55,564 nucleotides of DNA from Reclinomonas americana ATCC 50394 (lineage: Eukaryota): positions 41,233 through 96,796 of the forward strand of contig PS015277.1 in NCBI GenBank assembly GCA_048213135.1. Reading direction: 5' to 3'. The notes under the pieces were generated by a model. The model saw only the letters and a list, made by a program, of their open reading frames with translations. It made no database searches and had not been told where the DNA came from. A program made the translations under genes and the position numbers. Position 1 is the stretch's first letter; every line of letters starts with the position of its first letter. Of this stretch, positions 1 to 26,270 are shown piece after piece.

Positions 1-1135
1 AAGGGGAACGTGTGAGCCAGCCAGTCACAACACGCAAAACACTTCACCCCCCACGCAACACTGTGGTTCCACGACCCTCCAGGCAGTCCTTGAGCAGCAA
101 GCCGAGCATGCTGTCCTCGTAGTGAATCTCGCTGGTGGGCCGGCGCTCGGAGATGTCGCGCAGCAGGGCGCGGAGCGTGCCGAGAGACGGGTTCGGGTTC
201 ATGTCGCGCTGTGCGCCCTTGTTCGGCTGTCGATCAATCAGCGAGTGCGCGAGGTCGACGAGCACAAGCTTGCCAGTGACCGACGTCTTGGTCAGCGGCC
301 TGAACGAGTCCACGAACAGCGTGTACACAATGTGTGAGCGGTAGCTCTCGCGACGCAGCACCACCCGGTCAAAGAGATCCTGCACGTGTCGGATTCGTCA
401 GACTCGCGTAACAAACACACACATAAAATGTTACACAAAACGAACCACCAGCGAGTCCTCGCTCTCCACTGTCAGCAGCTTGACATTGCGCAGGAACACA
501 TGCTGGCCGTCTTGCTCGTAAACAATCGATTCTGTCGAGGCGACGACATGCGCGTGAGATTTTCCATCAGAGACGCCGCTCTTGTCATAAAGATGCATGC
601 ACTCACCGTTGGTGAACTCGTCGTCCGAGAGAATGTCGCGGACACGGTTCTCCAGCACCTCGATCACGCTGACGCGCAGGCGCACCTGGCCGCGGTAGCT
701 CAACTCCTGCCGCTTGGCCTCAATCTGTCGATATGCGCGACTGACAATGCCAGGCTCAGGGGCCAGGCCCTTGGCTGTCGGCTCGCGACCATGCAGGGAG
801 AACTCCTTGCAGGCGCTGCCGAGGCCGTAGAACAGCAGGCCAACGGCGTTGCCCTCGAACAGCGAATCCACCATGGGTTCCAGAGGCGCGTACACCTCCT
901 GCAGCAAAAGGTGAGCGACGCGAGGAAAAAAATGTCGAGTAAAGCGAGTGAGACGGCACTCACCGGCTGCGTGTTGAGGTGATCAAACACGTGGTCAAAG
1001 TCGTAGCTGCGCGCGGCGTGCTCCACAAAGGTAATGGAGCGCGCATTGTCCACATCCATGGCGGCGGTCGGGTTCGAGAACCACTCCGAACCGGTAAATG
1101 GTCGCACACGGCAGTACACCTTGACCGTACCCGGA
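1..1135 (-). other. Kinesin-like domain 6 (degenerate, truncated by window edge)
   Basis: VKVYCRVRPF; YDFDHVFD; FYGLGSACKEFSLHG; YRSH; GKLVLVDLAHS; YEDSMLGLLLKDCLEG. Confidence 0.85.
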
Positions 1136-4100
1136 CCGCGCGAGGCCGCTGCACGAGAAACGGGGAAAAGGGAGCGTGAGATATTGACCAGCCAGACTCC
1201 TTTTGATGATGACTGAGACGCAACGAGTATCCGACGCCTGCGAGCACATCCACATGGTGGCGGGGGCCATTGGGCGCGTCGACGATGCCGGTGGTGATAC
1301 CGACTTGTTCGCACGCGCGGACGATCGACCAGCGCTTGATGCGCTGCGCGGACCGGGGCTCACTGTGGAGCGCGACGATGCCGTGGGCTGGCTCGACGCT
1401 GACGGCGGTGCACTGGCTGCCGCAGTCACTGCCGGTGCCTGTGTGTATGTGTGTGATTATTACGTCAGCAGGAGTGCAACAACTCGGCTCTGCACGCACC
1501 CGCCGTGGACTTCTGGTGTGCTTCACGCCCGCAAACTTGAGCGTGTTCAGCGTTTCGTCCACATCGAGTGCCGACGGTGACACGTGCAGGAACAGACTGC
1601 ACCGACAAATGTCAGACTCAACGATGACGACGACATGCAGAACACTTCCGGCGCGTCACACACGCAACATGGTGCGGAACGTCCGGCTAAACACATGCTG
1701 CAACAGCATGGTCAGCTTGTTCTCGCGCCAGCGCGGCACACGGTGGGTCGACGGATCCATCATGTTGCGCAGCAGGTTGCGCAGCGAGTTCAGCGACTGG
1801 TTGACGGCCACAGAATCTGCCTTGACCTGCAGGAGGAGAACGGAATCGACAATTGAGGTGTCGAACAATCGCTGCCACCACCGCACTCGAACAGACACGA
1901 AACCTCGATTTCGGTGCGCGTCTTGAACGCACGCTCGGAGCCAGCCAGATCCGCAAAGAACAGCGAGCCCTGAGCCGGCGGTGAAGACGGATCCGACAGC
2001 GAACGGAGCGTCACCACCACGCGGAAGAGCAGGTGTGAACGATCGGGAGTGCGGCGAGACATGGCCTCCTCCAGGCACATCTGCATCACCGAGATCAGTG
2101 AAACTTTGGGAAACCGAGACACACAACTGCCAGCGCCACTACTCACCATCGCATCCTCAAAGCAATCGACACGCATGTGAACTGCACCACGCACAAAAGC
2201 GCGATTGCGGCTCTTTGACATGTGCACCGTCAACTTGGGTACCAACTCGTCCTCGTTCTCCGGCTCGTACAGCAGATCGGTAATGTCCTCGCCGCACACT
2301 TGCAGAATGCTCCACACCACGTCGGTCACCTCGAGATCGTAATCTGCTCACAAACAGTGAGACGAGAGGAACACAACACCACTTCCATCCAGCAGCACAC
2401 CCACCTTCCAGTTGGCTCGGATCTTCGCTGGCAATCGCCTCACGCTGCGCACGGGTGCGCATGAAAATGCGGTTCAACGACCGTGCCAACAGACCTGTGT
2501 GCATTAGGCATTCAGCAAAAGGCATGCCCACCGAAACCAAGATGCTTGCCACACGTACCAGGATCACGCGGCTCGCCCAACATGGTGTGCGTCTTGCCGG
2601 CGCTCAACTGGCCGTACGAAATGATGCAGCTCTCGTGACCCGACAGGCACCACTCGAGCACATCGTCCACTGAAGCAGCCGCCTCCTGCTCAGCAGCAAC
2701 CATCGGTCAGTCATCGCCGAGAGGTAGCACGTGGAGGTCGACGCAACATCCTGAGTGACATTGTAGTCCAGGGCTCGGTCCACCGAGTAGTACTTGTACT
2801 CTTGCGACTTGACCTCGACACGCACAGTCTTCTCGTCCGGCATGTCGACAGCCGGCGAGTACTCGCCATGCTCCATCTCCAGGCGGTTGAGTGGGCGCAC
2901 ACGGCAGAACACACGCAACGCGCCAGAGCCGAGCAAGCCTGCCATGGATTCCAACCGTGAGAAACAGCGAGAGGCAAAAGCACATTCGACGGATACGCAA
3001 CTGGCTCCTGACACGGCCGAATCGGGGCGCGGAATCGGAGACTCGCGCGGCGTTTGTGTGGCCAGCGTCGGGCGCGCCTTGATGCGGTGGCCGAGAATCG
3101 AGCGGCCAAAGATCATGGTCTGTCGGCTTCCCTCCACGTCACCCTCCGTCGGTGCCACATGCAGGAACACGCTAATGGAACAAATCGCGGTGAGATGCAC
3201 GCCGACAGCAACTGTATCAAAAAAGGCACGCACATGGACTTGGCCGGGGGCTGCAGGCAATCGCGGCACACCATGGCGATCTTGCTCTCGCGCCACGGGG
3301 CACGTCCCTGAATGAGCTTGTGCAGCACATTCTGCAGAGCGGCGAGCGAGGCGTTCGGGTTGACCTCCTCCACGGCGGCCTGCGTCGGCACCAATCCAGT
3401 GGCCAGCTCCACAAAGCACAGCTTGCCCACGGTCTTGGTCTTGGTGCGCGGGTCAAACACCTCCACCCACAACGTCACCAAAATGTGCGCCTTGTACGTG
3501 CTGCGATGTGCCAGCGAGTCCGTCACCACCTCCATCACGTCGTGGTACGTGTCCACCGGCACGACTTCGACATGCTCCAAGTACACCTCGCCCGACGCCA
3601 TCATGCGCACCGACGGCTGACGAGCGGCAGCCAAGCTACGGCGCTTGGCATCGGCGCTCTTCTCGGCCGACGAGCTCGTCACAAAGTCGGGTCTTCGTGG
3701 CCGCGACTTGCGCGGAGCATCGTCCGTTGTCAACACGGCAGAAGTCTTGCGCAGGTGATCCTTGGTCTCCTTGGCCATCAAATCGACCATGGTGTCACCC
3801 TGCTCGCACATCGACAGAATGAGCGCCTCTAATCTTGCAATGGTACAAAAAACACAGTGTCATGTGGCGCGCCACGCACCCGCAGCTCCAAGACAGACGC
3901 TCGAATGGTGATTGTCTCCGTCTCCTCGTCGACCTTGCGCTGGAAGAAGCGATGGCACACCAACCCCAGCATCTCTGGTGGTCACATGCAAACACTGGGC
4001 GTCAGCCAAACGAAAAGCAAACGACTATTAGAATAACAAGTACACACCACTGGAGAAGCTGCTCTCTTCCAACGCCTTGCCACTGTCCATGGAACCGGCG

Positions 4101-7100
4101 CAGAAAATGGCAGCGCCGTAGCCGTTCATGGCATGCGTCGCAAGTTCGTCGACGTGCTTCTCCGCCGACTGTTACGCGCACACAACAACAGTGGTGAGAT
4201 CGAGCACCGTCGCTGCATGCGTTACCCGTGCGTGCAACTTNNNNNNNNNNNNNNNNNNNNNNNNNNNNNNNNNNNNNNNNNNNNNNNNNNNNNNNNNNNN
4301 NNNNNNNNNNNNNNNNNNNNNNNNNNNNNNNNNNNNNNNNNNNNNNNNNNNNNNNNNNNNNNNNNNNNNNNNNNNNNNNNNNNNNNNNNNNNNNNNNNNN
4401 NNNNNNNNNNNNNNNNNNNNNNNNNNNNNNNNNNNNNNNNNNNNNNNNNNNNNNNNNNNNNNNNNNNNNNNNNNNNNNNNNNNNNNNNNNNNNNNNNNNN
4501 NNNNNNNNNNNNNNNNNNNNNNNNNNNNNNNNNNNNNNNNNNNNNNNNNNNNNNNNNNNNNNNNNNNNNNNNNNNNNNNNNNNNNNNNNNNNNNNNNNNN
4601 NNNNNNNNNNNNNNNNNNNNNNNNNNNNNNNNNNNNNNNNNNNNNNNNNNNNNNNNNNNNNNNNNNNNNNNNNNNNNNNNNNNNNNNNNNNNNNNNNNNN
4701 NNNNNNNNNNNNNNNNNNNNNNNNNNNNNNNNNNNNNNNNNNNNNNNNNNNNNNNNNNNNNNNNNNNNNNNNNNNNNNNNNNNNNNNNNNNNNNNNNNNN
4801 NNNNNNNNNNNNNNNNNNNNNNNNNNNNNNNNNNNNNNNNNNNNNNNNNNNNNNNNNNNNNNNNNNNNNNNNNNNNNNNNNNNNNNNNNNNNNNNNNNNN
4901 NNNNNNNNNNNNNNNNNNNNNNNNNNNNNNNNNNNNNNNNNNNNNNNNNNNNNNNNNNNNNNNNNNNNNNNNNNNNNNNNNNNNNNNNNNNNNNNNNNNN
5001 NNNNNNNNNNNNNNNNNNNNNNNNNNNNNNNNNNNNNNNNNNNNNNNNNNNNNNNNNNNNACCGCCATGGAAGACTCAAAATCGTAGGCGCGGTGGAAGC
5101 GGTACTCGTTGCCGTCGGTCAAACGCACAGTGTCCTCGGTTGGGCACGACACCGCCTGCTGCTCCTCCCAGTAGTCTTCGTCGTCGTAGAACGGGCGCAC
5201 CAACACGGCCACAGTGACGTCGCCAGGCTGGCCGGCAGCTGCGCGGCCGTGATTGGTGGGCGCAGAAGAAAACTGTGACTCGGAGGCACCATCGGCTGCG
5301 CGCACAACAACAACAACAATGAGCATTCGACGTTGGTGACACCACGACGACGACGACGAGGGACGCACAATCTGGAGGCGCAGGGCGGGCACCGGCGACA
5401 ATACCAGACGCGCGACGCGACGAGTCCGGCGGTGCCGACTCGGCATTGGCGTCGCGCTGAGGCACCTCCACGACCTGCGTGTGCGCACCAGACGGACGGC
5501 TGCGCTTGCGGCGCTGCTGCAAGATGGAGGCGCGGAAGAAGCCATAACGCAGCGCCTGCGTCGTGGCCGGCAACGCGCCAGCAAACGGACTGATGCACAC
5601 AAACAGCACCGACTTGTAGCGCTTCTGGAACGCCATGTGCAACAGCATGGTCAGCTTGCTCTCGCGCCATTGCACGTGCGGGTGGGTGAGATCTGCCAAA
5701 CACAAAGGCAATGGAGTCGTCAGCAACAGCAGGCGGGGAGTCAGTCTGTCTGCTGGAGAGACAGTGCGCAACTCTGCTGATTGGGAACGCTCTGCACCAG
5801 CTTGCGCTTGTTGTACACACGTCCGACCTCCATCACTTGATCGGGCGACAACGAGAGGCTAGTGAGCACATCCTGCAGCGCCTTGAACGAGTGCGACACC
5901 GGCAGGGCGTCGCGCAGATACTGCGGCTTGTCCGCATGGCCCGTCAGGTCGTCCTCGGTGACTTGCGCGGCCAGGTCGGCGAAAATGAGCTTGCCACGAG
6001 TCGGCACGCGCTGGTCCGGCGCCTGGATGTCGACGTAGAAGATGTAGACCGTGTGGCAGCGGTTGGATGCCGAGACCGAGTTGGCCTCCACCGACTCGAA
6101 CAGGATCTGCACGACNNNNNNNNNNNNNNNNNNNNNNNNNNNNNNNNNNNNNNNNNNNNNNNNNNNNNNNNNNNNNNNNNNNNNNNNNNNNNNNNNNNNN
6201 NNNNNNNNNNNNNNNNNNNNNNNNNNNNNNNNNNNNNNNNNNNNNNNNNNNNNNNNNNNNNNNNNNNNNNNNNNNNNNNNNNNNNNNNNNNNNNNNNNNN
6301 NNNNNNNNNNNNNNNNNNNNNNNNNNNNNNNNNNNNNNNNNNNNNNNNNNNNNNNNNNNNNNNNNNNNNNNNNNNNNNNNNNNNNNNNNNNNNNNNNNNN
6401 NNNNNNNNNNNNNNNNNNNNNNNNNNNNNNNNNNNNNNNNNNNNNNNNNNNNNNNNNNNNNNNNNNNNNNNNNNNNNNNNNNNNNNNNNNNNNNNNNNNN
6501 NNNNNNNNNNNNNNNNNNNNNNNNNNNNNNNNNNNNNNNNNNNNNNNNNNNNNNNNNNNNNNNNNNNNNNNNNNNNNNNNNNNNNNNNNNNNNNNNNNNN
6601 NNNNNNNNNNNNNNNNNNNNNNNNNNNNNNNNNNNNNNNNNNNNNNNNNNNNNNNNNNNNNNNNNNNNNNNNNNNNNNNNNNNNNNNNNNNNNNNNNNNN
6701 NNNNNNNNNNNNNNNNNNNNNNNNNNNNNNNNNNNNNNNNNNNNNNNNNNNNNNNNNNNNNNNNNNNNNNNNNNNNNNNNNNNNNNNNNNNNNNNNNNNN
6801 NNNNNNNNNNNNNNNAACAGTGAGCACGCAGCGAACAGAGCAACATGAAACAGTCGGCAACCCGTCGCAACTCCAGTGGCTTCCATGTTCTCCAGTGGCA
6901 GCACCAACGCATGCTCCACGTACACCTCACCGGCGCGAGTGACGCGCAGTGCGAGGCGCTCCGACGGCGGCACGTCCGTGTCACTGTTCTCAAACGCCGT
7001 GCGCAGCAGGTCCTCAATCTCGTCCGACGGCGTCAAGCGCACCACCGAGGCGCGCACCGACACCACAGTGCCCGACGACTGACGCATCGATTCGGCCTGT

Positions 7101-10100
7101 TCGAACAGCTTGCTCAGCGACAGCGGCAGCACACCTGCCACCAGAACATGTGAGAAACGCAATCCAGCAATGGATGGGAAACGCACTTCATCACTCACCC
7201 CACTCGCTCTCGCCCAGCAACGTGAATGTCTTGCCAGAGCCGGCATCGCCGTAGAACAGCATCGAAGAGTCGTTGCCCTGCAGCGCCCAGTCCACCAGCT
7301 CGACGGCGCTACCAAACACCTCCGACTGCGTGGCCTCAGGGCCATAGGCGTGATCCATCAGGAACGACTTGCCGTTGTTGAGGTAGACAGTGTCCTCGTC
7401 GGCGATGCGCGAGATGCCAACGCGATCGACCACAGTCGGATCATTGTCCTCTTCCTCGTTCAGCGGGCGCACACGAGAAATCACACGAATATCTCCTGGC
7501 GACTCGGCAGCCTCCGACTTGCCAGCCGCAATAAACTGGTACGTCGGCTTGACCGACTCGTACTTCTGTCGCATTGACCACCGACAAAAGTTAGTTCACC
7601 ACAGGGGAAGAGCAGGGTCGAGTGCAAGGGCACGAAACTCGGCCAGCAAGCTCGCGACGAATGTCTGCAAACTGCATCGTCAGCAGGTTGTCCTCCAAGT
7701 CGTGCTCCATTGGTGAAATGTGCGTGTAGAGCAGAATGCGCGAGTTGAACTCCATGCAATCGCGGACGAGGTGCGTCAGCTTGTTCTCGCGGAAGCGCGG
7801 GTACGACTGCGACTTGCCGGCGTCCATGATGCAGCGCATCGTCGATCGCAGGTGCATGAGGGTCTGGTTGGCCACGGTGCTGCCAGAGGTGATGTCGTCG
7901 CGGTAGTGTGCCTGCTCAGGCGTCGGCAAATCCACCAGGGCGACCTTGCCCACCAGCTCGTCACCCGTGCGTCGGTTGGTCGTCTGCACGTAAATAATGA
8001 TCACCAAGCTCGTCAGCAGGCGTGCGACACCGTGCTCCAGCGCGCGGAGGCGACGGGCGACTCCTGGCACGCGCTGCGCGTGGAGAACAAAGAAGAAAAT
8101 AAAGATGTGAGACCATCCATCAGGTGAACCACAAAAATAGTCATGTCGACGCACCCACAGCTCCTCGGCATCCATGCGCTCGGTGACCACATTCTCCAAA
8201 ATCGTCTCGCCATTCGCGGCAGTGCGGATGACCACCTTTTCCTGCACGAGGCATTACTGTGTCAAAGCAGAATAGGAAACACGACGGCCACCGGTGAACC
8301 ACACCTTGGCAGAGCGACGGCCCACCAGATCGGAAATCACATCGCCGTCCACATCGAGTACCGCACACGTCCAGCGAATGTTCTCAATGTCGGGATGATC
8401 GGGGGCGCTGTCGCGAATCTGGCGCGTGAGCTCGCTGATCAAATGACCAAAGAGTCCCTGGTTCGGCTCGTCCGGCGTGCCAAACATCGACGCCAGCTTG
8501 TCGCCAGACTTGGCGCCATACGCAAACACCGACGAGGAACGGCCGTCCAGAGCACCGTCAATCAGGCTCTTGAAGCGCGCACGAATCACGTCGTCGTCGA
8601 CGGTCGGCGGGAAACCCGTGTCCACCTTGAACGTGGATCCGTCAATGAGGTCGACCTGGTGGCCATTGAAGCCCGAGACCACCACCGACTGCACGGCAGA
8701 GGCGAAAGTGAGTGGCGGCGAGAGTAGCACAAAATCTTCTTCTCCCCTACAACTCACCGTCGGTGGCTCCTCGTTCGCCTGACCGCGCTCCTCCTCGGCG
8801 TACTGGCGCACACGGGTAACGACCTTGACGTCACCGAAAACGCGCTCGCCGTCGGCCCCGAAACCGAGCTGGTTCTGCGAGCCCTCACCAGCACCGGCCG
8901 GACCCATTTGCTCGGCCACGCGCGACTTGATCGAGCGCGAGCTCACCGGTCCACTGGCGCCATCGCCACGCTGCTGCTGCTGGCCCTCGTCTCCGTACCA
9001 GCCAAAGTGCAGCGTCTGACGCGTCTTCTCCAGCTCGCTGGCGGTGGGTGCAACCGTCAAAATGACGGCCAACGACGCCGGCTCCGTGAAAAAGTCCTTC
9101 AGGAACATGGTCAGCTTGCTTTCGCGGTAGCGCACCACCGGCTGATCGCCCGCATGCGCCGGCGGCTCAGCCAGTGCGCGGAGCACGTTGCGCGTTGCCG
9201 TCACCGACTGGTTGGTGCGAATGCCCTCGGGACTCAGCTGTGTGGCAATAAAGTGAATATGTGGCGAGCGCTACAGCAACGCGGGGGAAAAGAGGCGACG
9301 CACCACCATGCGTCCGGCGCGATTCGTGCGCACAGCCGGCACCAAATCCACGCACACAATGCGGGTCTCGAACACTGTGGCCTCTGCGATGAAGAGAAAG
9401 CGAATCAGGCGACGAGCGAGAAATCGATTTTCGTGCGACGCATACTCAACTGTCTTCCTCGCCCGGCATCCATGTGGACACGAACACGTTGAACGTCACG
9501 ACCACGTGGGCGACAGATCGCAGTGCCGCCTCGCCGTCGGCGTTGATGAATGACACAAACGTGCGCGCGCCAAACGACTGCTGCAGTGTCTCCTGTTGTC
9601 GACAGATTGAGAACGACAAGGAAGGACAAAAGGAGGGGAGTCAAAGAGAACCAACCTTCAGCACATCGGCATCCTCGCCCGGACGCTCATCGAGGCCCTT
9701 GAAGATCACCGAGTGACCAATGACGCGGACGCTGATTTTGCTGTCCTCGCCGCGCGAAGCCTTGATGAGGTCATTCGCTTCGTCGCCGCACATTTGCGCC
9801 ACCGAGTAGTTGAAGGCCAGTGAGCCGTTCTCTCCCGGCTCACCAAACTCGAACGATGCCGGATCACGCTCCAGCCGGTCACGTTGTGAGCACAGCTTCT
9901 GGCACACCGTCAACAGGAACTCTGCACGTCAAGTAAGCAGACTGCCCGTTATCAAACAGACTGTGCGCGCGCACAGAAACGTACCCTCAAAGACGCGACC
10001 ACGGCCAGACTCCACGTGGCCGTGGAAAATCAGGCATCGGTTGTGTCCGCGCAGAGCATCCACGACGGCTGCACTGGTGATCTCCTCGACCACCTCACGC

Positions 10101-13100
10101 TTGGTGTCCGACGACACAACGCGATCGTAGTCGTAGCGGTGTCCGTCGGGGAGCACCACAGTGTTGCCGTCGACCACCTCGTAGACCTGCATGGGGGGTG
10201 AGTGAGAGTGAGTGTGGAGAATATGTGCTTTTGCGACAGTGAGGGGGAAAGCGCACCGGACGAGCGTTGCCATTGTCTGACTCCTTTTGCGTGAAATTGC
10301 GAGAAATGGTCTGCACCGAGAACGGGCGACGCCACTCCGAGCCATCCTCGAGCTGCACGGGCGTGCGACCACAGAACACATTGATCTCTGGCTCGACAAC
10401 CTCCACTGCTGCTCACGAAAAACTGCGCAGTGAGCGTTTTTCAGCAGCCAGTGAGCGTGTGAAGAGCGCACGCAACGAGCAGAGGGTGCAGGCGGCGGGC
10501 GCTGGACCACAGGCGCTGGAGCCTCGCGCTGCTGCTGCTGCTGCTGTGGAGGCGCAGCTTGTGGAGCCTTCGGCGGTGACGGAGGCTTCTGCTTCGGGCT
10601 CTCAGGCTGCACGTTCCACCAACAGCGTCAGTGTCCACACGGACAACAGTACACACACGCGCACACACGCAAGATCAAACACACCTTTTCAGGGCTGGAC
10701 TCGGGCGTCGGGTACTCTGGCGGTGGGGGCGCTTGCTTCTTCGGCTCCGGCAGCGGAGGCGTGTAACGCAGCTCCTCTTCCGACTCGGCGCCGCCCTCGC
10801 CCTCCTCACCGTACTCGTACACGTAGTAGTCCTCGTCAACGAGCTCTTCCTCCACAGCCGCCGCGCTCTTTTGTACCTTGGGCGATTGGCTGTCACTGTG
10901 GTGCGATCACACCCATCGGTGAGCGCCAACTGGCGAATAGACGAAAAAATCAAGACCAACAAAACCACGCACCGTGGCTGCTCGCGCATCGTAATTGACT
11001 GCGGCTGCGACGACTGCTGCGCGGATCCAGAAGCGGCACTGACCACACCGCTCTTCACCTCGGATGCTGCCGGCTGCGCGCCCTTGTTGTCGGCATTCTT
11101 CACCGACGGCAATCCGGTGCTCCACACCTCATTGGAGTCCACGTCGGTGGTGTCACCATCGGTTTCCTCCTCCTCCTCACCGCCACCCTCCTCGTAGTAC
11201 TCGTAAAAGACCTCCTCGCCACCGACCTCGGTCTGCTGTACCTCTTGTGTCTGGCGTGAAGCGTCCTCCGCAGCACGACGGGNNNNNNNNNNNNNNNNNN
11301 NNCTGCCTGCTCGCGCAAGTCTTGCACACGGCGCGCCTCCTGCGCCTGCCGCTGCTCCTCCTCGCGCTGCTGGCGCTGCTGCTGCTGCAGCTGTTGTTGT
11401 TGCTGCTGTTGCTGCTGTTGGCGCTGCAACTCTTCGCGCTCTGCCGCCTCCTCGTCCTCACTGAACTCTTCCTCCTCCTCGGCACCGCCTTCGCCCTCGT
11501 AGTACACCTCCTCAAAGTACTCTTCCTCCTCCCTACAAGTGCGTGTCAGCACCATCGTTACCTCCACAATGTCCCTGCACTGGCGACGGAAAAAGAACGC
11601 AACATGGCTGGTGCTGCGGCGGCGGCCGCGGCGACGGCGGCGGCTCGTGGCTGAGTGGAAGCGGCAGGGGCGGCGCGTGGTGGCGCCGGCGCATCCTCCT
11701 CTTCATCATCAGTCACCTCCATCACCTCCTCCTCCATCTCCGCCTCGCCATCCTGACCCGCCTCATCCTCATCGTCCGACACCTCCNNNNNNNNNNNNNN
11801 NNNNNNNNNNNNNNNNNNNNNNNNNNNNNNNNNNNNNNNNNNNNNNNNNNNNNNNNNNNNNNNNNNNNNNNNNNNNNNNNNNNNNNNNNNNNNNNNNNNN
11901 NNNNNNNNNNNNNNNNNNNNNNNNNNNNNNNNNNNNNNNNNNNNNNNNNNNNNNNNNNNNNNNNNNNNNNNNNNNNNNNNNNNNNNNNNNNNNNNNNNNN
12001 NNNNNNNNNNNNNNNNNNNNNNNNNNNNNNNNNNNNNNNNNNNNNNNNNNNNNNNNNNNNNNNNNNNNNNNNNNNNNNNNNNNNNNNNNNNNNNNNNNNN
12101 NNNNNNNNNNNNNNNNNNNNNNNNNNNNNNNNNNNNNNNNNNNNNNNNNNNNNNNNNNNNNNNNNNNNNNNNNNNNNNNNNNNNNNNNNNNNNNNNNNNN
12201 NNNNNNNNNNNNNNNNNNNNNNNNNNNNNNNNNNNNNNNNNNNNNNNNNNNNNNNNNNNNNNNNNNNNNNNNNNNNNNNNNNNNNNNNNNNNNNNNNNNN
12301 NNNNNNNNNNNNNNNNNNNNNNNNNNNNNNNNNNNNNNNNNNNNNNNNNNNNNNNNNNNNNNNNNNNNNNNNNNNNNNNNNNNNNNNNNNNNNNNNNNNN
12401 NNNNNNNNNNNNNNNNNNNNNNNNNNNNNNNNNNNNNNNNNNNNNNNNNNNNNNNNNNNNNNNNNNNNNNNNNNNNNNNNNNNNNNNNNNNNNNNNNNNN
12501 NNNNNNNNNNNNNNNNNNNNNNNNNNNNNNNNNNNNNNNNNNNNNNNNNNNNNNNNNNNNNNNNNNNNNNNNNNNNNNNNNNNNNNNNNNNNNNNNNNNN
12601 NNNNNNNNNNNNNNNNNNNNNNNNNNNNNNNNNNNNNNNNNNNNNNNNNNNNNNNNNNNNNNNNNNNNACGTCCACATACTTGGTCGTGGTAATGTACCG
12701 CGTGGTGACTGTGTGGGCGTTTCCCTGCGCATCACGCTCGGTGTGCTCCTGAATATCCTCCGACACCTGCGTCTTGTCGTCCAGGTTGTATTGCTGCGCG
12801 TGCGCACACGGGTGAGCGCAAGAGAGAGGGAGGGGAGGGAGGAGAGATAAGGGGAGGGGGAGGGGGAGAGGGAGAGGGAGAGAGAAAGGGAGAGGGACAG
12901 AGAAGGGTGGGAGGAAGGGTGGGAGGAGTTGCAGAGTGTGTGCAGGAGAGAGAGACACAGAGTGTGTGAGAGTGTGTGCAAGCGTGTATGTATGCAGAAG
13001 AGAGTGTGTGCCCAAGGAGAGAGAAGGAGAATCGCTGTTCCAACGGCACCCACCCTGTGCATTTCGCGATCGCCTGCTGGCGGCAGCTCCTCCTGCACAT

Positions 13101-13870: not shown

Positions 13871-16800
13871 GCTATGCGGGCTCGACTACTTGCACAAGCA
13901 GCATGTGTGCGTTATCAGTCGCTTTCCGTGACTTGGTGGTGTGCCTCGCTTGCTGACACAGACGACCACGTGCAGGGTGCATCGCGATCTGAAGGGCAAG
14001 AACGTGCTGATGGTGAATGGCGCCGATGGGACGGTGATCAAGCTGGCCGACTTTGGCTGCAGCACGCTGCTGTCGACTGGTCGACAGGCTCTGACTGCTG
14101 GTGTCGGCACGCCCGGTTGGACGGCTCCCGAGGTGTTCAAGGGCGTCGGCTACGACACCAAGGTCTGTATGTGTGTGTCTGGCGCATGTAGTGAATGTCG
14201 CGCGCCTCACTCACGCTATCGTGATCAGGTGGACATTTGGAGTCTGGGTGCCACCGTGCTCGAGTTGTTCACCGGGCAGGTGCCGTACTCGGAGCTCACC
14301 AATGTGGTTTGTGGTAATGGTGGATCGCGCTGCACCGTCCATCAACTGTGACACTTACGGCGACGACATTCACAGCCGGCCGTGATTTACAAAATGATGA
14401 CAACGGCAGAGCCGCCACTGATTCCGGCCGACTTGTCGGCGCTGGCCAAGGACTTTCTCTTGCAATGCTTCAGAGCGTTGCGTGCTTGCGCTGTTGTTCC
14501 TCGTCGTCCTTGCTTTGATTTCTCACAACGACGACAACAGAAATCCCGCCGATCGACCCACCGCCGAGGACCTCATGTTGCATCCGTTCATCACCAGTCA
14601 TCCACGCCACGCTGACGCCGGGCCACTGCCACACGCACCGGTTAGGATGCAGAGTGCACGTTTTGTCTGTTGCCCACGATGCACTCATCCCCGTCTCACA
14701 CATCACACAGCCGTCACTAGGCGGATCGGGATCCAGCTCGGGTGAGTCGCCGCCATCGCTCTTGTTTTCCCGCCTATCGCTGACACTCATCTACTTTGTG
14801 TGCTGGTCGGTGCAGGATCAGGCAGCATGCACAGTCTCATGTCGAACAGGAGAGGTGGGTCGCTCCAGTCTCTGCGTCCTCCGTCCCTTCACTCCAATCA
14901 CACCTCTCCGTGCAGTTGAGAGCTCCGACTTGATACACCAGATGCACCGAGTGGCCGCCATTCCCATCAACGTGAGCATCAGCCCCGTGGGTCGATCGCC
15001 CACTGCCTCGTCGTCATCCGCCGGCGATTTTCGAGTTGAGTGTGCTTCTACCGCATCGTCCTCTCCTCCATTCGACTCACGTGCTTCACTGCCCTCTTCT
15101 TGGCGCAGCTGTACACCTTGGTGCGCAAGGCACCGCATGCACCACGCTGGATTTTCCCGTCACACGCTGCCATGGCCGAGTCACTGATCGACAAGTTGGT
15201 GCACGACGGATGCATGCGAGGTGCGTGATCTCCGTCTCCTTCCCACTCTCCCTCTCTGTGTGCTCTGACACTGCAGGTGCACCAGGCGCGACTGGCATTA
15301 TTGTGATTGAGGGACTTGCCGGCTTTGGCAAGAGCACTCTTGCATCATTAATCATCGATCGCATGTGGGAGCGCAAGCTGGTGCGCGGACACGTGCTCTA
15401 CGTGGATCTGTGCGGTCATTTGGAGAGTCAGCAACATCGCACCAGTGCCAGCGCCGTGGAGCAGCTCTTTTTGCAGCTGAGTGCACCACGTGCCGAGTGG
15501 CTGCTGAAGCAGAACACGGAGCCGGCGGTGTTCATGCAGTCGTTTTACGCGGCACTGGCTGTGGAGGCGCCGGAGGAGCGCGCCGTGGTGTTTCTCGACA
15601 ATGTCGGGTCCGCCGAGCAGCTCAAGAGAATCATGCCGCGTGATATTACGCACGCATGTTGCGTGGGCAGAGACATCACTGCTGCCGTCGCTTTGTATGG
15701 CGAATTCTCACTGTGTTCGTGCAGATGGCGGCGCGTGCGGACCACTGTTTCTGGCCACCAGCCGACACTCCATCTCGCCGTCGCTGGCCGCCGACCTGCC
15801 GCGCGACGTGTCGCTGGCCACTGCGCGCACGGAGCAGCTCACCGAGGGAGACTTGACGGCGTTTGTCGAGTTCCACCACCCCGATGCCGACGAGCACGTG
15901 CGCCGCCTCCTCCTCTCCATGAAGTATCCGTTTGCACTCGGCACTGTGTCGAGGTGCTCCCTGTTATGCGTTGTCCTCATTGGCCTGTGTCTCTTTTCAC
16001 TCACGCAAGTATTTCCAGCGCACTGAAACGCGAAGGAGCCTTCTTGTCGTCGTCGGAACTGGAGGCTCTGTGTGCACAATTGAACCGCGAAGCCTTTGAG
16101 GATGTGCTGGACTCGACAGTGCGCCAGCTGACTCAACCACAGCGACGCGCATTGCTGTCGTTGGCTGCGGTGGAGCGACTGCCGGCCGTCAGCATGAGGC
16201 TAATTGTGGTGCTGGCGGCGGAGGTGGTGGATCCGCTGCCCTCAAGTGACGGTGCGGCAATAGCGACCTCACCGCGTTCTCGCGACACCATGGTGGTGAC
16301 GTACCTGCGTGGCTTGCTGGCCGATCACTCGCTTCATGTGGTCGAGCGAAACGGGCATTGCATCGTGGCGTGGTCGTCGAGTTCACCGGAAGACCGTGAT
16401 ACCGACCTGCCGACGTGTGTCACCTTCAACACGCACAACCTGTATCCGGACTACTTCCGCCTGCGGTGGCCTCGAGCGTTGGCACAGGCGCAGGGCACAC
16501 TCATGCGCCTCTTGTCGGCCCTCATCCGCAAGGCGACGTTGCAGGAGAAGGCCCAGGCGCAGTTGATGAGCATGTTTGGCGAGCACGTCAAGGCGCTGTG
16601 GGACTACTTGGCCGACGGCCGCTTCGACAGCGACTTGCCGTTCTGGCTAAAGACAATCGACGCGGTGTGCGAAGCAGCGCGAGTCACGCCAGCGAGATTC
16701 CGCGAGCGAGTTGGCGACGTGCTGCGCGCCATCTCCACGCCTGCAGTCACCAGCGCGATGGAGGCCGACGACAATGTGGCCGCCGCGGTGCACAAGTCGC

Positions 16801-18432
16801 GCAGTCTGCTGTACCATTTGGGCTTGGATGAACGGCAGTCGATGGAGGAGATGGAGGAGAGCTTGCGGCTGCGCATGCGCGCGCATCCCGGTGATTCTGC
16901 ACCGGAGGTGATTCAGGCGCAGCACGACCTCGCCACTGCGTGCCGCCGTTGTCCTGCGCATGTGGAGAAAGCAGTGGCCCTGTTCCGCGCTGTGCACGCT
17001 GCGCGCAGGGCGCAGTTGGGCGAGGTGCGAAAGTTTTCGAGGGTGCCAGGGAGTTTTAGATTAGCTGCACGAGTCACTGACTTTTGTACCAGGATCACTG
17101 CGACACACTCGGCGTGGCTGGTGACCTGGCCGAGGCCCTTCATTTGTCCGGCAACTTCCAGGAGGCCTCCAAGATACTCGTGTCGGTGGTGCAAAAGTGG
17201 CAGGCGTTGCACGGGGCAGCTGATCCACTGACGCTCACGGCACTCAGCCATTTGGCTTCCGTGTTGCGCTCTCAGGGCTTTTTGTCCGAGGCCGCAAAGC
17301 TGTACGAGAGGGTGCGTACTCTGTTCTGAGGAGGGTCCATCTCCTCATTCGCCAGCGTACTGAAAACAAGTGGCAATAGGTTCGTGTGGGACTGGAGACC
17401 GCACTCGGTCCGAATCACAGCGATGTGCTGGCCGCAATCAACAACCTGGCCACGGTGAGTTTGCACCCTGCACGAATGGTGCCGACTTTTGATCGTCCTC
17501 TCACTGTTCTGTGCGTGTGCAGACGTGGCGTGAATTGGGGCGAGTCGCCGAGGCCGTCACACTCCTCACGGACTTGGCCGACACGAAGCGTCGTTTGCTC
17601 GGCGCCGAACACCCGGACACGCTCACTACTTGTTTCGTGTTTGACGCCACGTCCATGATTACTGTATCGTTTCGTCGCTCACCCTGTCCACGCAGTGAAC
17701 AACCTGGCACTGGCCATGGAGGCACAGGAGCCACCGGACTTGGCTGGGGCGGCACGACTGCACGCCATGGTCCTCGAAACCCGCACACGCACACTCAGCA
17801 GCGCCCATCCAGACACGTTGCGTGACGATTGTTGGCGTCGCTGGTGAATGTGTGCCGCTCACGTGTATATATGATCGTCGGCAGTATCGTGTCGGCCAAT
17901 AATCTGGCGGTTCTCTTGCGACGGCAGCATCACCACAGTGAGGCCATTTCGTTGCTTCGGGAGAGTGCCGAACGCGCGCAACACATTCTGGGTCCCGACC
18001 ACCACTTGGCGCTTACGGTGCGCGCCAATCTGGCCTCTGTACTCGACGAGGCTGGATTTGTGGAAGAAGCCGTGGGGATGAACGAGGATGTGTTGGAGCG
18101 TCGGCGACGTGTTCTCGGTCCCCTGCATCCCAATGTTGCGTGCTGCAGGCTGGTGTTGTTTGTCAATGGTACGTGCCAGCAGCACTGACTGTGGTCAGCG
18201 GGTACAGACACTGGTATCCATGGTGAACTTGGCGTTGCTGTATCACGAGCGGCAGCAACGCACGGCCGACGCCATACCGCTCTTGTCGACCGTGCTCGAG
18301 GAGCGCAAGCGCACGCTCGGCGACGACCATCCGCTGACACGGGCCGTGCGCGTGGATCTCGAAAACGTGCGCAGCTCACTACCTGCCGCACCAGCAGCAG
18401 CACCGCCACCACCACCACCACCACCACCATAG
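13871..18432 (+). CDS. Multi-exon Ser/Thr protein kinase - NB-ARC/STAND NTPase - TPR protein (NLR-like); kinase N-lobe not visible, probably in gap 13810-13829
   Basis: Kinase: GLDYLH, HRDLKGKN, IKLADFG, GTPGWTAPE, DIWSLGATVLEL, RPTAEDLMLHPF. NTPase: IIVIEGLAGFGKSTLA (Walker A, about 15312-15335), VVFLDNV (Walker B), FLATSR. About 9 repeats of the LGxxHPDTLxxxNNLA type at 16880-18370, then poly-Pro and TAG at 18430-18432. Confidence 0.85.
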
Positions 18433-18551: not shown

Positions 18552-19686
18552 TTAGCGGCGATAGCGGTGCTTCTTGAAGTTGAAGTACAGCTGCAGCACA
18601 CCGCGATCGAACGTGCATCGGTAGCCGCGGCGCGAGCTGTGCTCCCACTCCTTGTTGGCGATCTTGAACGCAATATCCTCGTACGGCGGGCCGGCTGAGA
18701 AGCGAATGGTGCACTCGTCGGGGTGATCGCCCGGCAGCAGCTGGAACACCGGCGTCTTGGTCTTGTCGATCAGATCCGGGTAGAAGATGTTGAACTGCGC
18801 AGCACAACGCGTGTCAGCACACATTACACGCTCCTTCCACACACAGTGGGTGAATCGACGCACCTTGTAGCCTGACACGGTCTTTGGCGGTGGGTTGTCG
18901 TGATCGTAATGCGTCTGGTTGTACTTGTTCCAGTCGAAGGCCGTGTGAATGCGGTTGAAGTAGCGCGGCTTGCGTGGTCGGAACTTGTCGAACATTGAGT
19001 ACCGCTGTTGATCGAGAGGGACTTCCTCCGAGAAAATCGCCTCGTCGTCCTCCATTGGACGCTGCGCCTCCACCGCATACAGCTCGTCGTCGGTCTGTGT
19101 GGAGAAGAGGCGGTGAGACATGGGGGCAATCNNNNNNNNNNNNNNNNNNNNGGGAGAGGGAGGGGGAGGGGAGGGGGAGGGGAGAGGGGGGAGAGAACAA
19201 ACATCAGGGAGTGACGACAAAGAAAGCAACGGCGAGACGAAGCGCATCGAACAGAAGAGAGAGGCACAACGTGCAGAGTGAATGTGTGTGCAAAAGCCGT
19301 GAGAATGGAAGAAAAGGGGAAAGAAACAAAGTAAGAAGTGACAAGAAAGCAACAGCAGAGGTGCGAAAGTGACATAAGAGAGAGAGAGAGAGAGAGAGCA
19401 ACGACGTGGGAGACACAATGTATGCGTGTGCATGAGAGAGAACGAGAGATCAACCACTCACCTGCTCCTCCGAGACAGAATCCGGGTCGAGTCCCTTGTC
19501 GCGCAACACCTCCTCGCGCTTCTTCCACTTGAACTGCGTGCGCAGGGAGCTGTCGGCCCACGGGTTGGAGTCGTCGGTGAAGCCGCCAAAGAGCGCGAGC
19601 TCATCGACGCGCTCCTTCTCCTTGCGTCGCAGCTTGCCGTCCTTGCGCTTCTGTCGCTCTTCGGGGGTCTCGCGAATGCGCTGCAG
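18552..19686 (-). CDS. CACTIN: Cactin (spliceosome-associated protein); partial, middle and 5' end lost in gaps
   Basis: C-terminal domain RPRKPRYFNRIHTAFDWNKYNQTHYDHDNPPPKTVSGYK|FNIFYPDLID...FSAGPPYEDIAFKI...LYFNFKKHRYRR*. Upstream exon 19461-19686 reads ETPEERQKRK...GFTDDSNPWADSSL...FKWKK. Confidence 0.95.
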
Positions 19687-23458: not shown

Positions 23459-26270
23459 ATGGTTTGTTGCAAATGAAAGACTCATGACACTCAGCACACA
23501 GAGAGCACTCACTCGCGCTCACAGGCGGACACTCTTCGTCTTGTGCGACGCGCGTCGTCCTCAGGTCTGCTCTCTCTCAGTCCAGTCTCTCTCTCTGTCT
23601 CTGACNNNNNNNNNNNNNNNNNNNNNNNNNNNNNNNNNNNNNNNNNNNNNNNNNNNNNNNNNNNNNNNNNNNNNNNNNNNNNNNNNNNNNNNNNNNNNNN
23701 NNNNNNNNNNNNNNNNNNNNNNNNNNNNNNNNNNNNNNNNNNNNNNNNNNNNNNNNNNNNNNNNNNNNNNNNNNNNNNNNNNNNNNNNNNNNNNNNNNNN
23801 NNNNNNNNNNNNNNNNNNNNNNNNNNNNNNNNNNNNNNNNNNNNNNNNNNNNNNNNNNNNNNNNNNNNNNNNNNNNNNNNNNNNNNNNNNNNNNNNNNNN
23901 NNNNNNNNNNNNNNNNNNNNNNNNNNNNNNNNNNNNNNNNNNNNNNNNNNNNNNNNNNNNNNNNNNNNNNNNNNNNNNNNNNNNNNNNNNNNNNNNNNNN
24001 NNNNNNNNNNNNNNNNNNNNNNNNNNNNNNNNNNNNNNNNNNNNNNNNNNNNNNNNNNNNNNNNNNNNNNNNNNNNNNNNNNNNNNNNNNNNNNNNNNNN
24101 NNNNNNNNNNNNNNNNNNNNNNNNNNNNNNNNNNNNNNNNNNNNNNNNNNNNNNNNNNNNNNNNNNNNNNNNNNNNNNNNNNNNNNNNNNNNNNNNNNNN
24201 NNNNNNNNNNNNNNNNNNNNNNNNNNNNNNNNNNNNNNNNNNNNNNNNNNNNNNNNNNNNNNNNNNNNNNNNNNNNNNNNNNNNNNNNNNNNNNNNNNNN
24301 NNNNNNNNNNNNNNNNNNNNNNNNNNNNNNNNNNNNNNNNNNNNNNNNNNNNNNNNNNNNNNNNNNNNNNNNNNNNNNNNNNNNNNNNNNNNNNNNNNNN
24401 NNNNNNNNNNNNNNNNNNNNNNNNNNNNNNNNNNNNNNNNNNNNNNNNNNNNNNNNNNNNNNNNNNNNNNNNNNNNNNNNNNNNNNNNNNNNNNNNNNNN
24501 NNNNNNNNNNNNNNNNNNNNNNNNNNNNNNNNNNNNNNNNNNNNNNNNNNNNNNNNNNNNNNNNNNNNNNNACACGCACACATACACACACACGCACACA
24601 CACAGCGAGAGAGAGAGAGAGAGGGCGACTACTTACTCAACGACGCACCAGCAGCAAGACTGCTCTCATGGCACCTCGATCCTTCCTTCTTTGCCACTCT
24701 TCCTGTCATCCTCCCTTCTCCTCATTCTTCCTCTCTTCTGTTCACTTCTCCACATCAATTCTCTGTCCTCGTTTCTCCTCGCTTATCGCTTTTCCTCACT
24801 TCTCTTCTCCTCACCCGTCTTCTCTTCTTCCTCCATTCTCCTCGTTTCCTTGCTTTTCCTCTATTCTGGTCTCTCCCCATCACTTCTCCTCTCTTCTCCT
24901 CGCTCGTCACTCCTCTCTTCTCTTCTCCACACTTCTTCTCCCTTCTCCTCTCTTCTGTTCACTCCTCCTCTCTTCTGTTCTTGTCCTCGTTTCTCCTCAC
25001 ATCTCCTTGCTTCTCCTTACTTCTCTTCTTCCTCCCTTTTCCTCATTTCCTTGCTTCTCCTCTCCTTACTCCTCCTCTCTTCTGTTCACCTCCACAGCTC
25101 GTCTCTTCTCCTCGTTTCTCCTCGTCTCCCCACGTCTCCTTGCTTCTCGTTACCTATCTTCTTCCTCCCTTCCTCATTTCCTTGCTTATCCTCTATTCTC
25201 CTCTCTCAGCACTCCTCCTCTCTTCTCCTTGTTTCGTTGCATCTCCTCTGTTCACATCACTTCCCATCACTTATTCTTCGCTTTCCTCTCCTCTCCTCCC
25301 TTATTCACCTCTTCTCCTCTCTTCTCATTTCCTTCTCCTCCCTCCTCTTTTCCCCTCCTCTCCCCTCCTCTCTCTCTCTCTCCCACTTCTCACTTCCCCT
25401 CTATTCCACAGGAACTCTGCGAATTCCTCTACCAAGATCGACAACGCGTGCAGCGCGACCTCGCCGAGGTGCGACAGTCGAGCGCGGAGCTGGAGCAGCA
25501 GTGGCGCGAGGCCAGTTCCACTGCCCGCGTGGCCGAGCAAGCAGCTTCGTTCTTCTCCTCCTCTGGCCCACTTCTCACCGCGTTTTTTCGCTGACTGCTG
25601 TAATCTTGCATGCAGGTCAAGGAGCAGGTGGCGGCGCTGGGCTTTGCCGGTGGCGGCCAACTGCAGGAGGACACCACTCTCAACGACTTGCGTGGCAGCA
25701 TTCGTGAGATCGAGCGCGAGATTCAGGCCTTTGATCCAGCCTACGCGCGCGAGGTAGGCAACAATCCAGAATTCCGGGCGTTCGCGTTCGCGGTGGAGGG
25801 GACGCTCATCGTGGTGGGCACATGCAGGTTCTCGTGGAGGCCATGCCGGCAAGTGCACGGCATGCGGCCGGTGGCAGCAGCAACAGTGAGTACAGCCAGT
25901 TGGTGGCACGCAAGTTCCGCCGCCTGGAGCAATTCGTGTTGTGCTTGAAGAAGCGCATTCAGCGACTCGAATCGATGGAGGCTGGACTGGGTGAGCATGC
26001 TCTTCCACATCTCCGGCATTGCGTGTGTGTCTCTGCTTGGCTCAAAATGCGACGGTGGTGGTGGTGGTGCTGCAGGCGAGGTGGCTGCCAAGTTCGGCTC
26101 CGTGTCCAAGCTGGTGGACGAGAACAAGCGTCTCAGCAAGGAGAATGTGAAACTGCGCGAGCGTGAAGTCCGCTACGCACCGTCGCCACTCCTCCGCCGA
26201 CGCGATCTCAGCAACGTGTCGCACTCGTTCTTGTGTTCCCTGGTCAAGGCGCTGCAGAATGAGCTCAGGT
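23459..26270 (+). CDS. Coiled-coil protein, 5' fragment (unknown function)
   Basis: ATG|gtttgt at 23459, then exons ADTLRLVRRASSS, ELCEFLYQDRQRVQRDLAEVRQ, LNDLRGSIREIEREIQ, KLVDENKRLSKENVKLRERE with heptad character; runs into a gap. Confidence 0.55.
24680..25410. repeat. Pyrimidine-rich (CT/CTT) low-complexity intronic tract
   Basis: About 730 nt strongly dominated by C/T on the + strand, ending at the acceptor ccacag|GAA. Confidence 0.9.

Follow-up and report, generated by a model that had tools for sequence, protein, structure and literature searches.

A gene encoding at least six kinesin motor folds in tandem appears to lie at the left end of the window, a 55,564-nucleotide (55.6 kb) stretch of contig PS015277.1 of Reclinomonas americana ATCC 50394. 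The kinesin matches of the window are confined to the minus strand and to positions 56-10321, where they make six ordered passes through the motor profile. These six motor-like domains are termed D1 to D6, in the order of the chain. The sequence gives good support to their being parts of one predicted polypeptide of at least six heads, with no stalk in between. Our preferred reading, which we consider probable, is a single intron-rich gene that reaches upstream on the minus strand to 12793 or further and, at the other end, past position 1, and that would encode a multivalent microtubule binder of at least about 2,750 residues. In this chain, at least six kinesin motor-fold domains would come after an acidic, Gln-rich N-terminal region, with short flexible linkers connecting them and, again, no stalk. 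To our knowledge, characterised kinesins without exception carry a single motor domain on each chain, and multi-headed assemblies are formed by oligomerisation. The conventional architecture, in which a single motor acquires a second head through a coiled-coil stalk, is not found here, where six motor-like domains share one frame.

The earlier note on this DNA placed six successive kinesin motor folds on one strand, within 1-10385, and proposed a search with Pfam PF00225 in which at least six matches were expected. A six-frame scan of the entire window with our own motor HMM of 331 positions gives 18 matches, all of them in this region of the minus strand (56-10321), with none elsewhere in the window and none on the plus strand. 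The gathering score of PF00225 (29.3 bits) is passed by at least one ORF piece in each of the six units (33.7-79.5 bits). D1 together with the start of D2 reaches 79.5 bits in two stretches of ORF 8254-9270, and the remaining pieces score 52.7 bits for D2, 50.7 and 34.0 bits for D3, 33.7 bits for D4, 38.3 and 36.5 bits for D5, and 43.2 and 47.0 bits for D6. When the spliced model is compared with the motor HMM, all six units are found near full length (59.4-167.2 bits), D2 in two pieces. The claim of six folds on one strand is borne out by both profiles, and the gene does continue past the window edge, as D6 is cut by the left edge at about HMM position 303. The gene does not, however, begin at 10385, the upstream limit of the span in the note, as coding exons reach at least 12793. 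No single exon contains an entire motor domain.

The six heads differ in how much of the nucleotide-binding machinery they retain. D1 (8992-10385, minus strand as for all features below) contains five introns and scores 91.8 bits over HMM positions 6-324; its P-loop (GHVESGRG) is degenerate, as is its switch II (DLVPAV). Both motifs are also degenerate in D2 (7645-8823; GAKSGDKL and DLPTPE), which scores 63.1 and 47.2 bits and contains one intron (8304-8242) whose removal takes out an in-frame stop at 8256-8254. D3 (5523-7484) scores 125.1 bits over HMM positions 2-324 after removal of intron 6871-6107, which contains an N run (6116-6815), and combines an intact P-loop, GDAGSGKT, with a degenerate switch II, DLAAQV. 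In D4 (3090-5212; 59.4 bits, HMM positions 5-325), which likewise has an intron (5062-4169) containing an N run (4241-5060), the P-loop GSMDSGKA retains the Lys and has lost the Thr/Ser, and switch II (ELATG) is degenerate. D5 (1512-2912; 167.2 bits, HMM positions 2-324) is the best-conserved head, with the P-loop GQLSAGKT, a complete switch II (DLAGSE), and a switch I (PDRSH) that has lost two serines and kept R-S-H. Finally, the edge-cut D6 (1-1119; 110.7 bits, HMM positions 3-303) has GLGSACKE at the P-loop, a degenerate switch II (DLAHSL), and a switch I (SYRSH) that retains R-S-H. A stop at 46-44 in D6 lies past the point at which D4 and D5 have a phase-2 intron.

Across the array, the Walker A P-loop consensus GxxxxGK[S/T] is thus present in two of six units (D3 and D5), the switch II consensus DxxGxE in D5 alone, and the full switch I SSRSH in none, R-S-H being kept in D5 and D6. 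D5 is the sole candidate ATPase of the six. In D1, D2, and D6, whose sequences lack both P-loop and switch II, and in D4, which has neither the P-loop Thr/Ser nor switch II, the kinesin fold is inferred from the HMM matches. Selective conservation of the microtubule-binding face was considered and rejected: the L11-alpha4 and L12-alpha5 regions, which are 0.41-0.68 positive to the consensus compared to 0.81-0.95 in reference motors, are no better conserved than other regions.

Splicing was modelled with a parse that takes only codon log-odds and GT/AG sites as input and makes no use of the motor HMM. The parse yields a single stop-free frame of 2,572 codons from 11238 to 47 with 28 introns, the two N-containing introns having been added after the parse. 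The codon model was trained on the motor blocks of this same gene, linkers excluded, and the scores of the real sequence (+350.9 and +281.0 for the two segments) are therefore inflated; the opposite strand scores -103 and -106, and 10 dinucleotide shuffles per segment score -104 to -138. The absence of a forced stop between heads, which the earlier note had claimed, is seen in the spliced model. However, shuffled sequences are also crossed stop-free, with 0-2 restarts, so this property is by itself weak evidence, and the argument that no restart is needed was rejected as a sign of one gene.

The introns themselves have a consistent character. Lengths of 55-80 nt are found for 10 of 11 and 11 of 12 introns in the two real segments compared to 0-6 of 13-23 in the shuffles, and 24 of the 26 N-free introns measure 61-80 nt. 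Introns have a GC content of 0.537 and a T content of 0.307, compared to 0.621 and 0.197 in exons, and they share recurrent donors (GTTGCG, GTGCGT, GTTTCG) and recurrent motifs (CTCAC, CTGAC or CTAAC). Among the 20 intra-domain introns, position and phase coincide across domains in 14 pairs compared to 1.47 expected, a number reached in none of 20,000 randomisations. All five linkers have coding log-odds above zero in the model frame and below zero in either of the others, and GC3-over-GC2 coding periodicity is unbroken across the locus.

The linkers between heads are 29-85 residues long and contain no Pro/Gly-free run of more than 18 residues, which, as a reading of the sequence, agrees with the claim that no coiled-coil stalk separates the heads. 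The D1-D2 linker (8824-8991) is Gly-rich, has 56 residues, and lies inside a single 933-nt exon (9237-8305), with coding log-odds of +0.200 compared to -0.25 and -0.87 in the other frames. This junction requires no splicing, as the frame 8257-9270 is open throughout. In a phmmer search of the PDB, residues 14-90 of this ORF align to about 270-345 of kinesin chains and residues 214-316 to about 66-162, that is, the end of one motor and the start of another, and the joining of D1 and D2 in a single ORF is thereby confirmed. The D4-D5 linker (2913-3089) is Pro-rich, has 38 residues, and carries a 63-nt intron (3001-2939) that the parse recovered independently of the earlier note, which had an intron starting at 3001; the frame 2607-3452 is open whether this intron is spliced or retained.

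The D2-D3 junction contains the 73-nt GT-AG intron described in the earlier note (7638-7566), with a GTTTCG donor, an AACTAAC branch-like motif, and an ACAG acceptor. At the D3-D4 junction, the 73-nt GT-AG intron 5368-5296 is likewise present with a GTGCGT donor; an alternative donor, GTGCCC at 5392, would give a 97-nt intron of the same phase with the same acceptor. The D5-D6 linker (1120-1511; 85 residues in the model, introns 1510-1439 and 1213-1149) has the weakest coding log-odds of the linkers, +0.084 per codon. Its Ser/Ala/Pro exon, which the earlier note put at about 1225-1438, was recovered as 1438-1214, and the proposed frame did not stand as given: the parse prefers another frame, both are open, and the frame of this exon is ambiguous.

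These junctions bear on a rather unlikely alternative, in which the locus is divided into at least two transcription units arranged head to tail (D1-D2 and D3-D6, say, or smaller ones), as in polycistronic or trans-spliced genomes, and the linker introns are short intergenic spacers. If intron 7638-7566 were retained, the D2 frame would stop at 7593-7591 and an ATG in frame for D3 would follow 17 nt further on (about 7574), although independent genes need more than 17 nt between them. The acceptor at 12794 is also preceded by about 120 nt of polypyrimidine tract, which resembles a trans-splice site. Against separate units, the D1-D2 and D4-D5 junctions are stop-free between heads in every splicing state, and the unspliced frames of D3 and D5 continue into the coding region of the next head for more than 100 codons, in a different frame. 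Moreover, the linker introns match the intra-domain introns in length, donors, and branch-like motifs, and the linkers score as coding.

The array contains two N runs (4241-5060 and 6116-6815), both within introns whose splice sites are seen in the sequence, and these could in principle mark places where contigs of different kinesin loci were joined in scaffolding, inflating the count of heads. Such an artefact is very improbable. Two or three heads are represented, in part, in every N-free block; the two sides of each gap agree in motor-profile coordinates, strand, and intron phase; and splicing over the gaps turns half-domains into a full-length D3 and D4, at the scores given above. The gap-containing introns also lie at positions common to other heads. 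Treating the N runs of the gene as pure insertions into normal-sized introns was tried and rejected, as the introns would have 65 and 74 non-N nt in two cases, which fits, but 6 in the third, which does not.

Upstream of D1, the single-gene model continues into a non-motor region (10386-11238) of 192 residues, whose three predicted introns are less certain than any others of the model. This region is acidic and has a Pro/Gln-rich stretch and two E/Y-rich motifs, with coding log-odds of +0.257 per codon in the model frame compared to -0.39 and -0.69 otherwise. Further upstream, three stop-free exons (12793-12671, 11782-11604, and 11532-11303; 177 codons) probably belong to the array gene. Their product is acidic and Gln-rich; it includes a Q/E/R-rich stretch about 50 residues long and another E/Y-rich motif. 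The exons are separated by an intron containing an N run (12670-11783; N run 11787-12668) and by a 71-nt intron with a GTTGCG donor (11603-11533), and a 20-N gap within a coding exon (11283-11302) breaks the frame link between them and the parsed model. No start codon was identified in these upstream exons (11303-12793). The acidic E/Y-rich repeats of the N-terminal region resemble the C-terminal tails of tubulin.

In a tree of 152 tips, the six domains form a clade of six with a support of 0.951. The shared intron positions and phases, together with this clustering, suggest that all six arose by old duplications of a single motor unit that already had introns. Pairwise identity among them is only 16.7-27.3%, so the clade could also result from long-branch attraction. 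The nearest named reference motors are of the kinesin-8 and kinesin-7 (CENP-E) types, at about 30% identity, and not kinesin-14. PDB matches are scattered over many kinesin families, and the D5 exon 1904-2344 gave no match in a phmmer search of the PDB.

Word-indexed protein searches returned nothing for the junction ORF, run with longer lengths, or for the 751-residue neighbouring ORF, and a Protein Atlas search returned generic kinesin clusters only. The top HMMER match, P0001 (4,813 aa, 21 stretches), was examined as a possible giant multi-kinesin and rejected because it is a bacterial protein of PKD/laminin-G repeats whose match is confined to residues 183-235. The window contains no Rfam match, and Pfam searches of 40 other ORFs or exons yield two matches, a cactin exon and a weak NACHT-like one. 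Cactin identities are 52-59% whether the sequence compared is from a plant, red alga, sturgeon, mosquito, or fungus or is unnamed.

Another explanation is that the locus is a non-functional relic, a tandem series of duplicated kinesin pseudogenes that are no longer translated. The ATPase motifs are lost in five of six heads, divergence is very high, and the D1-D2 junction ORF, run by HMMER against 1.84 billion representatives, matched no orthologue among them. Yet the spliced frame runs for 2,572 codons without a stop, the GC3-over-GC2 periodicity is continuous, the GT-AG sites are intact with tightly distributed intron lengths, and all three large N runs of the gene fall within introns. Functional pseudo-kinesins, Vik1 among them, have likewise lost motifs and kept the fold; Vik1 lacks a nucleotide site and still binds microtubules. 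We regard a relic as decidedly unlikely.

If the single-gene reading is correct, D5, with its P-loop, switch I R-S-H, and switch II, may act as one ATP-gated head of the chain; D3 retains the P-loop only, and the ATPase motifs are lost in D1, D2, D4, and D6. Several nucleotide-insensitive pseudo-heads would then, most likely, hold the microtubule lattice, with D5 modulating attachment or giving limited movement, in an array protein that would not walk hand over hand. A role as a lattice binder, crosslinker, or ruler and not a walker, which the earlier note proposed and which is an inference, would fit the degenerate ATPase motifs in five of the six heads.

Several known systems resemble parts of this arrangement. 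In Kar3-Vik1 and Kar3-Cik1, a kinesin-14 is joined by a coiled coil to a non-catalytic partner with motor homology, giving two heads in total. The likeness lies in a catalytic head alongside a kinesin-fold head without a nucleotide site, but these are two chains paired through a coiled coil, whereas the array gene would join at least six heads covalently in one chain by short flexible linkers. Dynein heavy chains are built from concatenated duplicated modules of which only some are catalytic, and the TOG arrays of XMAP215/CLASP are tandem, multivalent tubulin binders; these are analogies of concatenated modules only, as their folds are unrelated to kinesin and no homology is implied. Costal2/KIF7, VAB-8, Smy1, and KIF26 are immotile or degenerate and serve in ATP-independent microtubule binding or scaffolding. 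They too have degenerate ATPase motifs in a kinesin fold, but each has a single motor-like domain compared to five such domains and one apparently competent head in the array. A passage of PMC2867816 names Cos2, VAB-8, and Smy1 as atypical. Single-chain constructs termed "tandem kinesin" have been engineered with two heads per polypeptide; according to the preprint (bioRxiv 10.1101/2025.06.11.659012), they are artificial, with two identical active heads for stepping studies, unlike the natural array.

The earlier note knew of no characterised protein with this architecture. The literature searched agrees, as it contains no description of a natural multi-head kinesin, but uncharacterised database proteins with two PF00225 motors do exist, namely P0003 from Achlya hypogyna (1,235 aa), P0107 from Paulinella micropora (2,283 aa), a Polykrikos kofoidii transcript, P0110 (1,562 aa), P0041, and P0130. 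Like the array gene, they have more than one kinesin motor per predicted chain, but these are two well-conserved motors (whole-protein E 1e-145 to 1e-204) compared to six here, and in P0110, P0041, and P0130 the motors lie at opposite ends of the chain, unlike those of the array. They are not close relatives of the array gene (E-values of 4e-12 or weaker), and some may be gene-prediction fusions.

A more specific and highly speculative version of the preferred reading is that of a natural "poly-kinesin", a staple or ruler of fixed length on the lattice with D5 as a nucleotide-gated latch. At the 8-nm tubulin repeat, the length of six heads would come to about 48 nm, and further heads may lie beyond the window edge. 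The E/Y-rich repeats could then serve as an intramolecular decoy, so that the heads stay away from the lattice before the protein is activated.

If the array gene is as modelled, a natural chain of at least six heads, five of them ATPase-degenerate, would represent a new use of the kinesin fold, as a covalent module that binds the lattice multivalently and has 8-nm modularity built in. Such a chain would likewise provide a natural experiment in how dead and live heads cooperate, how linker length relates to spacing, and how motors decay into microtubule-associated modules. Loci of this kind can be broken up or overlooked by gene finders and domain surveys that assume a single motor for each gene.

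The scaffold is a draft eukaryotic one, with a GC content of about 60% and 15 runs of N. Many minus-strand open reading frames (ORFs) between 44 and 10627 contain pieces that match the Pfam kinesin family PF00225 (gathering score 29.3 bits). A separate motor HMM of 331 positions, built from 146 kinesin motors out of the database search, was scanned in six frames across the entire window and gave 18 matches, all on the minus strand within 56–10321 and none elsewhere. These form six ordered passes along the motor profile, so the six tandem kinesin-like units are real, and the earlier note's observation of six successive folds on one strand is confirmed. In the spliced model, the minus-strand units D1 to D6, numbered from high to low coordinates, score 91.8 bits (D1, HMM positions 6–324), 63.1 and 47.2 bits (D2, 3–176 and 206–328), 125.1 bits (D3, 2–324), 59.4 bits (D4, 5–325), 167.2 bits (D5, 2–324), and 110.7 bits (D6, 3–303, cut by the window edge).

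The splice model was obtained by dynamic programming from codon log-odds, the GT...AG rule for introns, and a length prior; the log-odds were trained on HMM-aligned blocks, and the motor profile itself was withheld. Each N-free segment was parsed without a restart, yielding 11, 2, and 12 introns, and adding splice-site matrices changed little. Real segments scored +350.9 and +281.0, compared to −103 and −106 on the opposite strand and −104 to −138 for dinucleotide shuffles (10 per segment), a comparison biased towards the real sequence by a codon model trained on the same gene. Introns of 55–80 nt make up 10 of 11 and 11 of 12 in the real segments, compared to 0–6 of 13–23 in the shuffles. Once N-containing introns are joined in, the model comprises 2,572 codons (11238 to 47), 28 introns, and zero stops. 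The claim that no forced stop separates the heads holds, but a stop-free crossing alone is little evidence, since shuffled segments also need just 0–2 restarts. The weight of the parse rests on score and intron lengths.

Nearly all N-free introns (24 of 26) are 61–80 nt long. Introns are lower in GC than exons (0.537 vs. 0.621) and higher in T (0.307 vs. 0.197), with recurrent donors GTTGCG, GTGCGT, and GTTTCG, acceptors that are mainly GCAG or ACAG, and CTCAC, CTGAC, or CTAAC motifs upstream of the acceptors. GTTGCG, an unusual 5′ splice-site consensus that may give a clue to the lineage, is the donor of at least 7 of 30 predicted introns (e.g., 10476, 5772, 3001, 2747, 1668, 6871, and 11603, minus strand). 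The parse recovered the proposed D2–D3 intron (7638–7566), D3–D4 intron (5368–5296), D4–D5 intron (starting at 3001), and D5–D6 linker exon (about 1438–1214). In addition, a 63-nt intron (8304–8242) takes out the sole in-frame stop within D2.

At the N run 6116–6815, the exon before ends at a GTTGCG donor (6871) and a GTCGTGCAG acceptor follows, ending at 6107. At 4241–5060, the exon before ends at a GT (5062), and an AACAG acceptor with CTCAC ahead of it follows, ending at 4169. A scaffold misjoin across these runs would be an alternative source of the array, and it is disfavored because taking both runs as introns joins the three segments in frame and turns D3 and D4 from half-domains into near-full profile alignments. 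All three large N runs in the kinesin gene, including 11787–12668, lie inside introns, two of them starting immediately after the donor GT. Further runs of 854–966 nt occur at 23606–24571 and 44250–45103; the 700–966-N runs recurring across the window may be an unresolved repeat family or sized scaffold gaps.

Twenty intradomain introns were mapped onto the motor profile. Positions are shared near 63 (phase 0; D4, D5, D6), at 103–106 (phase 1; D1, D3, D4, D5), 182 (phase 0; D1, D3, D6), 250 (phase 0; D1, D5), and 303 (phase 2; D4, D5). Coincidences of position and phase between domains number 14 pairs compared to 1.47 expected, a count reached in 0 of 20,000 randomisations. Because the profile played no part in the parse, these shared positions validate the predicted introns, and they indicate that the six heads derive from a single intron-bearing unit. 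In a FastTree analysis of 152 motors, D1–D6 form their own clade (support 0.951). This grouping may also reflect long-branch attraction, as identity between heads is only 16.7–27.3%.

D1 and D2 lie in one ORF (8257–9270), as had been claimed, with their junction inside a single 933-nt exon (9237–8305). By phmmer against PDB chains (153 matched at E up to 0.01), residues 14–90 of this ORF correspond to kinesin chain positions of about 270–345 and residues 214–316 to about 66–162. The ORF is thus predicted to encode one motor's end, then the next motor's start. The frame across the D4–D5 junction (ORF 2607–3452) stays open whether or not its 63-nt intron is spliced out. The D2–D3, D3–D4, and D5–D6 joins require splicing of introns of the usual type; without it, D2 meets a stop at 7593–7591, and the D3 and D5 frames run out of frame through the following head. 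The linkers, which were left out of codon-model training, have per-codon scores of +0.08 to +0.32 in the model frame and negative ones in both others; for introns, the best frame gives a median of −0.075. From D1–D2 to D5–D6, they measure 56, 29, 79, 38, and 85 residues and are broken by Pro or Gly, with no run free of both exceeding 18 residues, in line with the proposed absence of a coiled-coil stalk. Given the open D1–D2 and D4–D5 junctions, usual-type introns, and coding-like linkers, a predicted single polypeptide very probably carries all six heads, and on internal evidence this architecture is strongly supported.

The gene continues past the window, as the earlier note held: D6 is truncated at the left edge, and the stop at 46–44 comes after the point of the phase-2 intron in D4 and D5. 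Coding periodicity also carries on upstream of the model, where there are three further predicted exons at 12793–12671, 11782–11604, and 11532–11303 (minus strand; 177 stop-free codons together). No start codon was found in the exons followed to 12793, and a 20-N gap (11283–11302) interrupts one frame link to the model. The predicted N-terminal region is acidic and Gln-rich. It holds three E/Y-rich motifs in total (10690–11560, minus strand), of the type E-E-x-F/Y-Y-E-Y-Y-E-E-G-G-G-E-E-E, which resemble tubulin C-terminal tails, and about 50 residues rich in Q/E/R (about 11310–11450, minus strand) that are probably helical. About 120 nt of CT-rich polypyrimidine sequence (12795–12920, minus strand) sit immediately upstream of the acceptor of the first of these exons and may represent either a long acceptor tract of the usual kind or a site of trans-splicing.

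With the D1–D2 junction ORF as query, HMMER over 1.84 billion representatives gave 1,131 matches at E up to 1e-3 (only 3 at 1e-10 or below) and no orthologue, since the top match is false and the remainder are ordinary kinesins. That top match, P0001, is a 4,813-residue bacterial PKD/laminin-G repeat protein, rejected as a multi-kinesin; it matched in 21 stretches yet only at ORF residues 183–235, so a high stretch count alone is no sign of a multi-kinesin. A few uncharacterised proteins have two well-conserved motors (Achlya P0003, Paulinella P0107, the Polykrikos transcript P0110, and two others). P0110, P0041, and P0130 (about 1,400–1,560 residues; one from a dinoflagellate transcriptome) carry one full motor N-terminally and a second C-terminally, which suggests a "double-ended" kinesin architecture not yet characterised. 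Literature searches turned up no natural chain with tandem, multiple, or multi-headed kinesin motor domains, only work on dimers and an artificial, engineered "tandem kinesin"; the passages of PMC2867816 that were covered make no mention of multi-motor chains.

Among the neighbours, only an exon for a cactin C-terminal domain (18555–19130, minus strand; PF09732, 179.2 bits) is conserved. Its best identities are just 52–59%, spread over plants, a red alga, a sturgeon, a mosquito, a fungus, and other sequences; the source organism therefore lacks a close relative in the protein collection. An uninterrupted 751-codon ORF (14976–17231, plus strand) has weak P-loop matches to NPHP3_N/NACHT (24.6 and 21.5 bits, neither reaching its cut-off) and no homologue in a word-indexed protein search.

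In D1 to D4, switch I is degenerate, the P-loops read GHVESGRG, GAKSGDKL, GDAGSGKT, and GSMDSGKA, and switch II reads DLVPAV, DLPTPE, DLAAQV, and ELATG, respectively. D5 (GQLSAGKT, DLAGSE) and D6 (GLGSACKE, DLAHSL) keep R-S-H in switch I. Judged by these motifs, D5 is the sole candidate ATPase, although both switch I serines are gone, and D3 may bind nucleotide without hydrolysis. Every head has a recognisable helix α4 and (W/Y)RESKLT motif, yet such microtubule-facing regions are not selectively conserved above the rest of the domain. In the proposed lattice-binding mechanism, short flexible tethers would carry one ATP-gated head and several kinesin-fold heads insensitive to nucleotide. The pseudo-heads might instead be non-microtubule scaffolds. 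Hand-over-hand walking would be unsuited to such a chain, which has no stalk and no canonical neck linker recognisable by eye. We infer that it would attach multivalently to the microtubule lattice, its heads lying along one protofilament or bridging neighbouring ones, and a single polypeptide acting in this way is reasonably probable.
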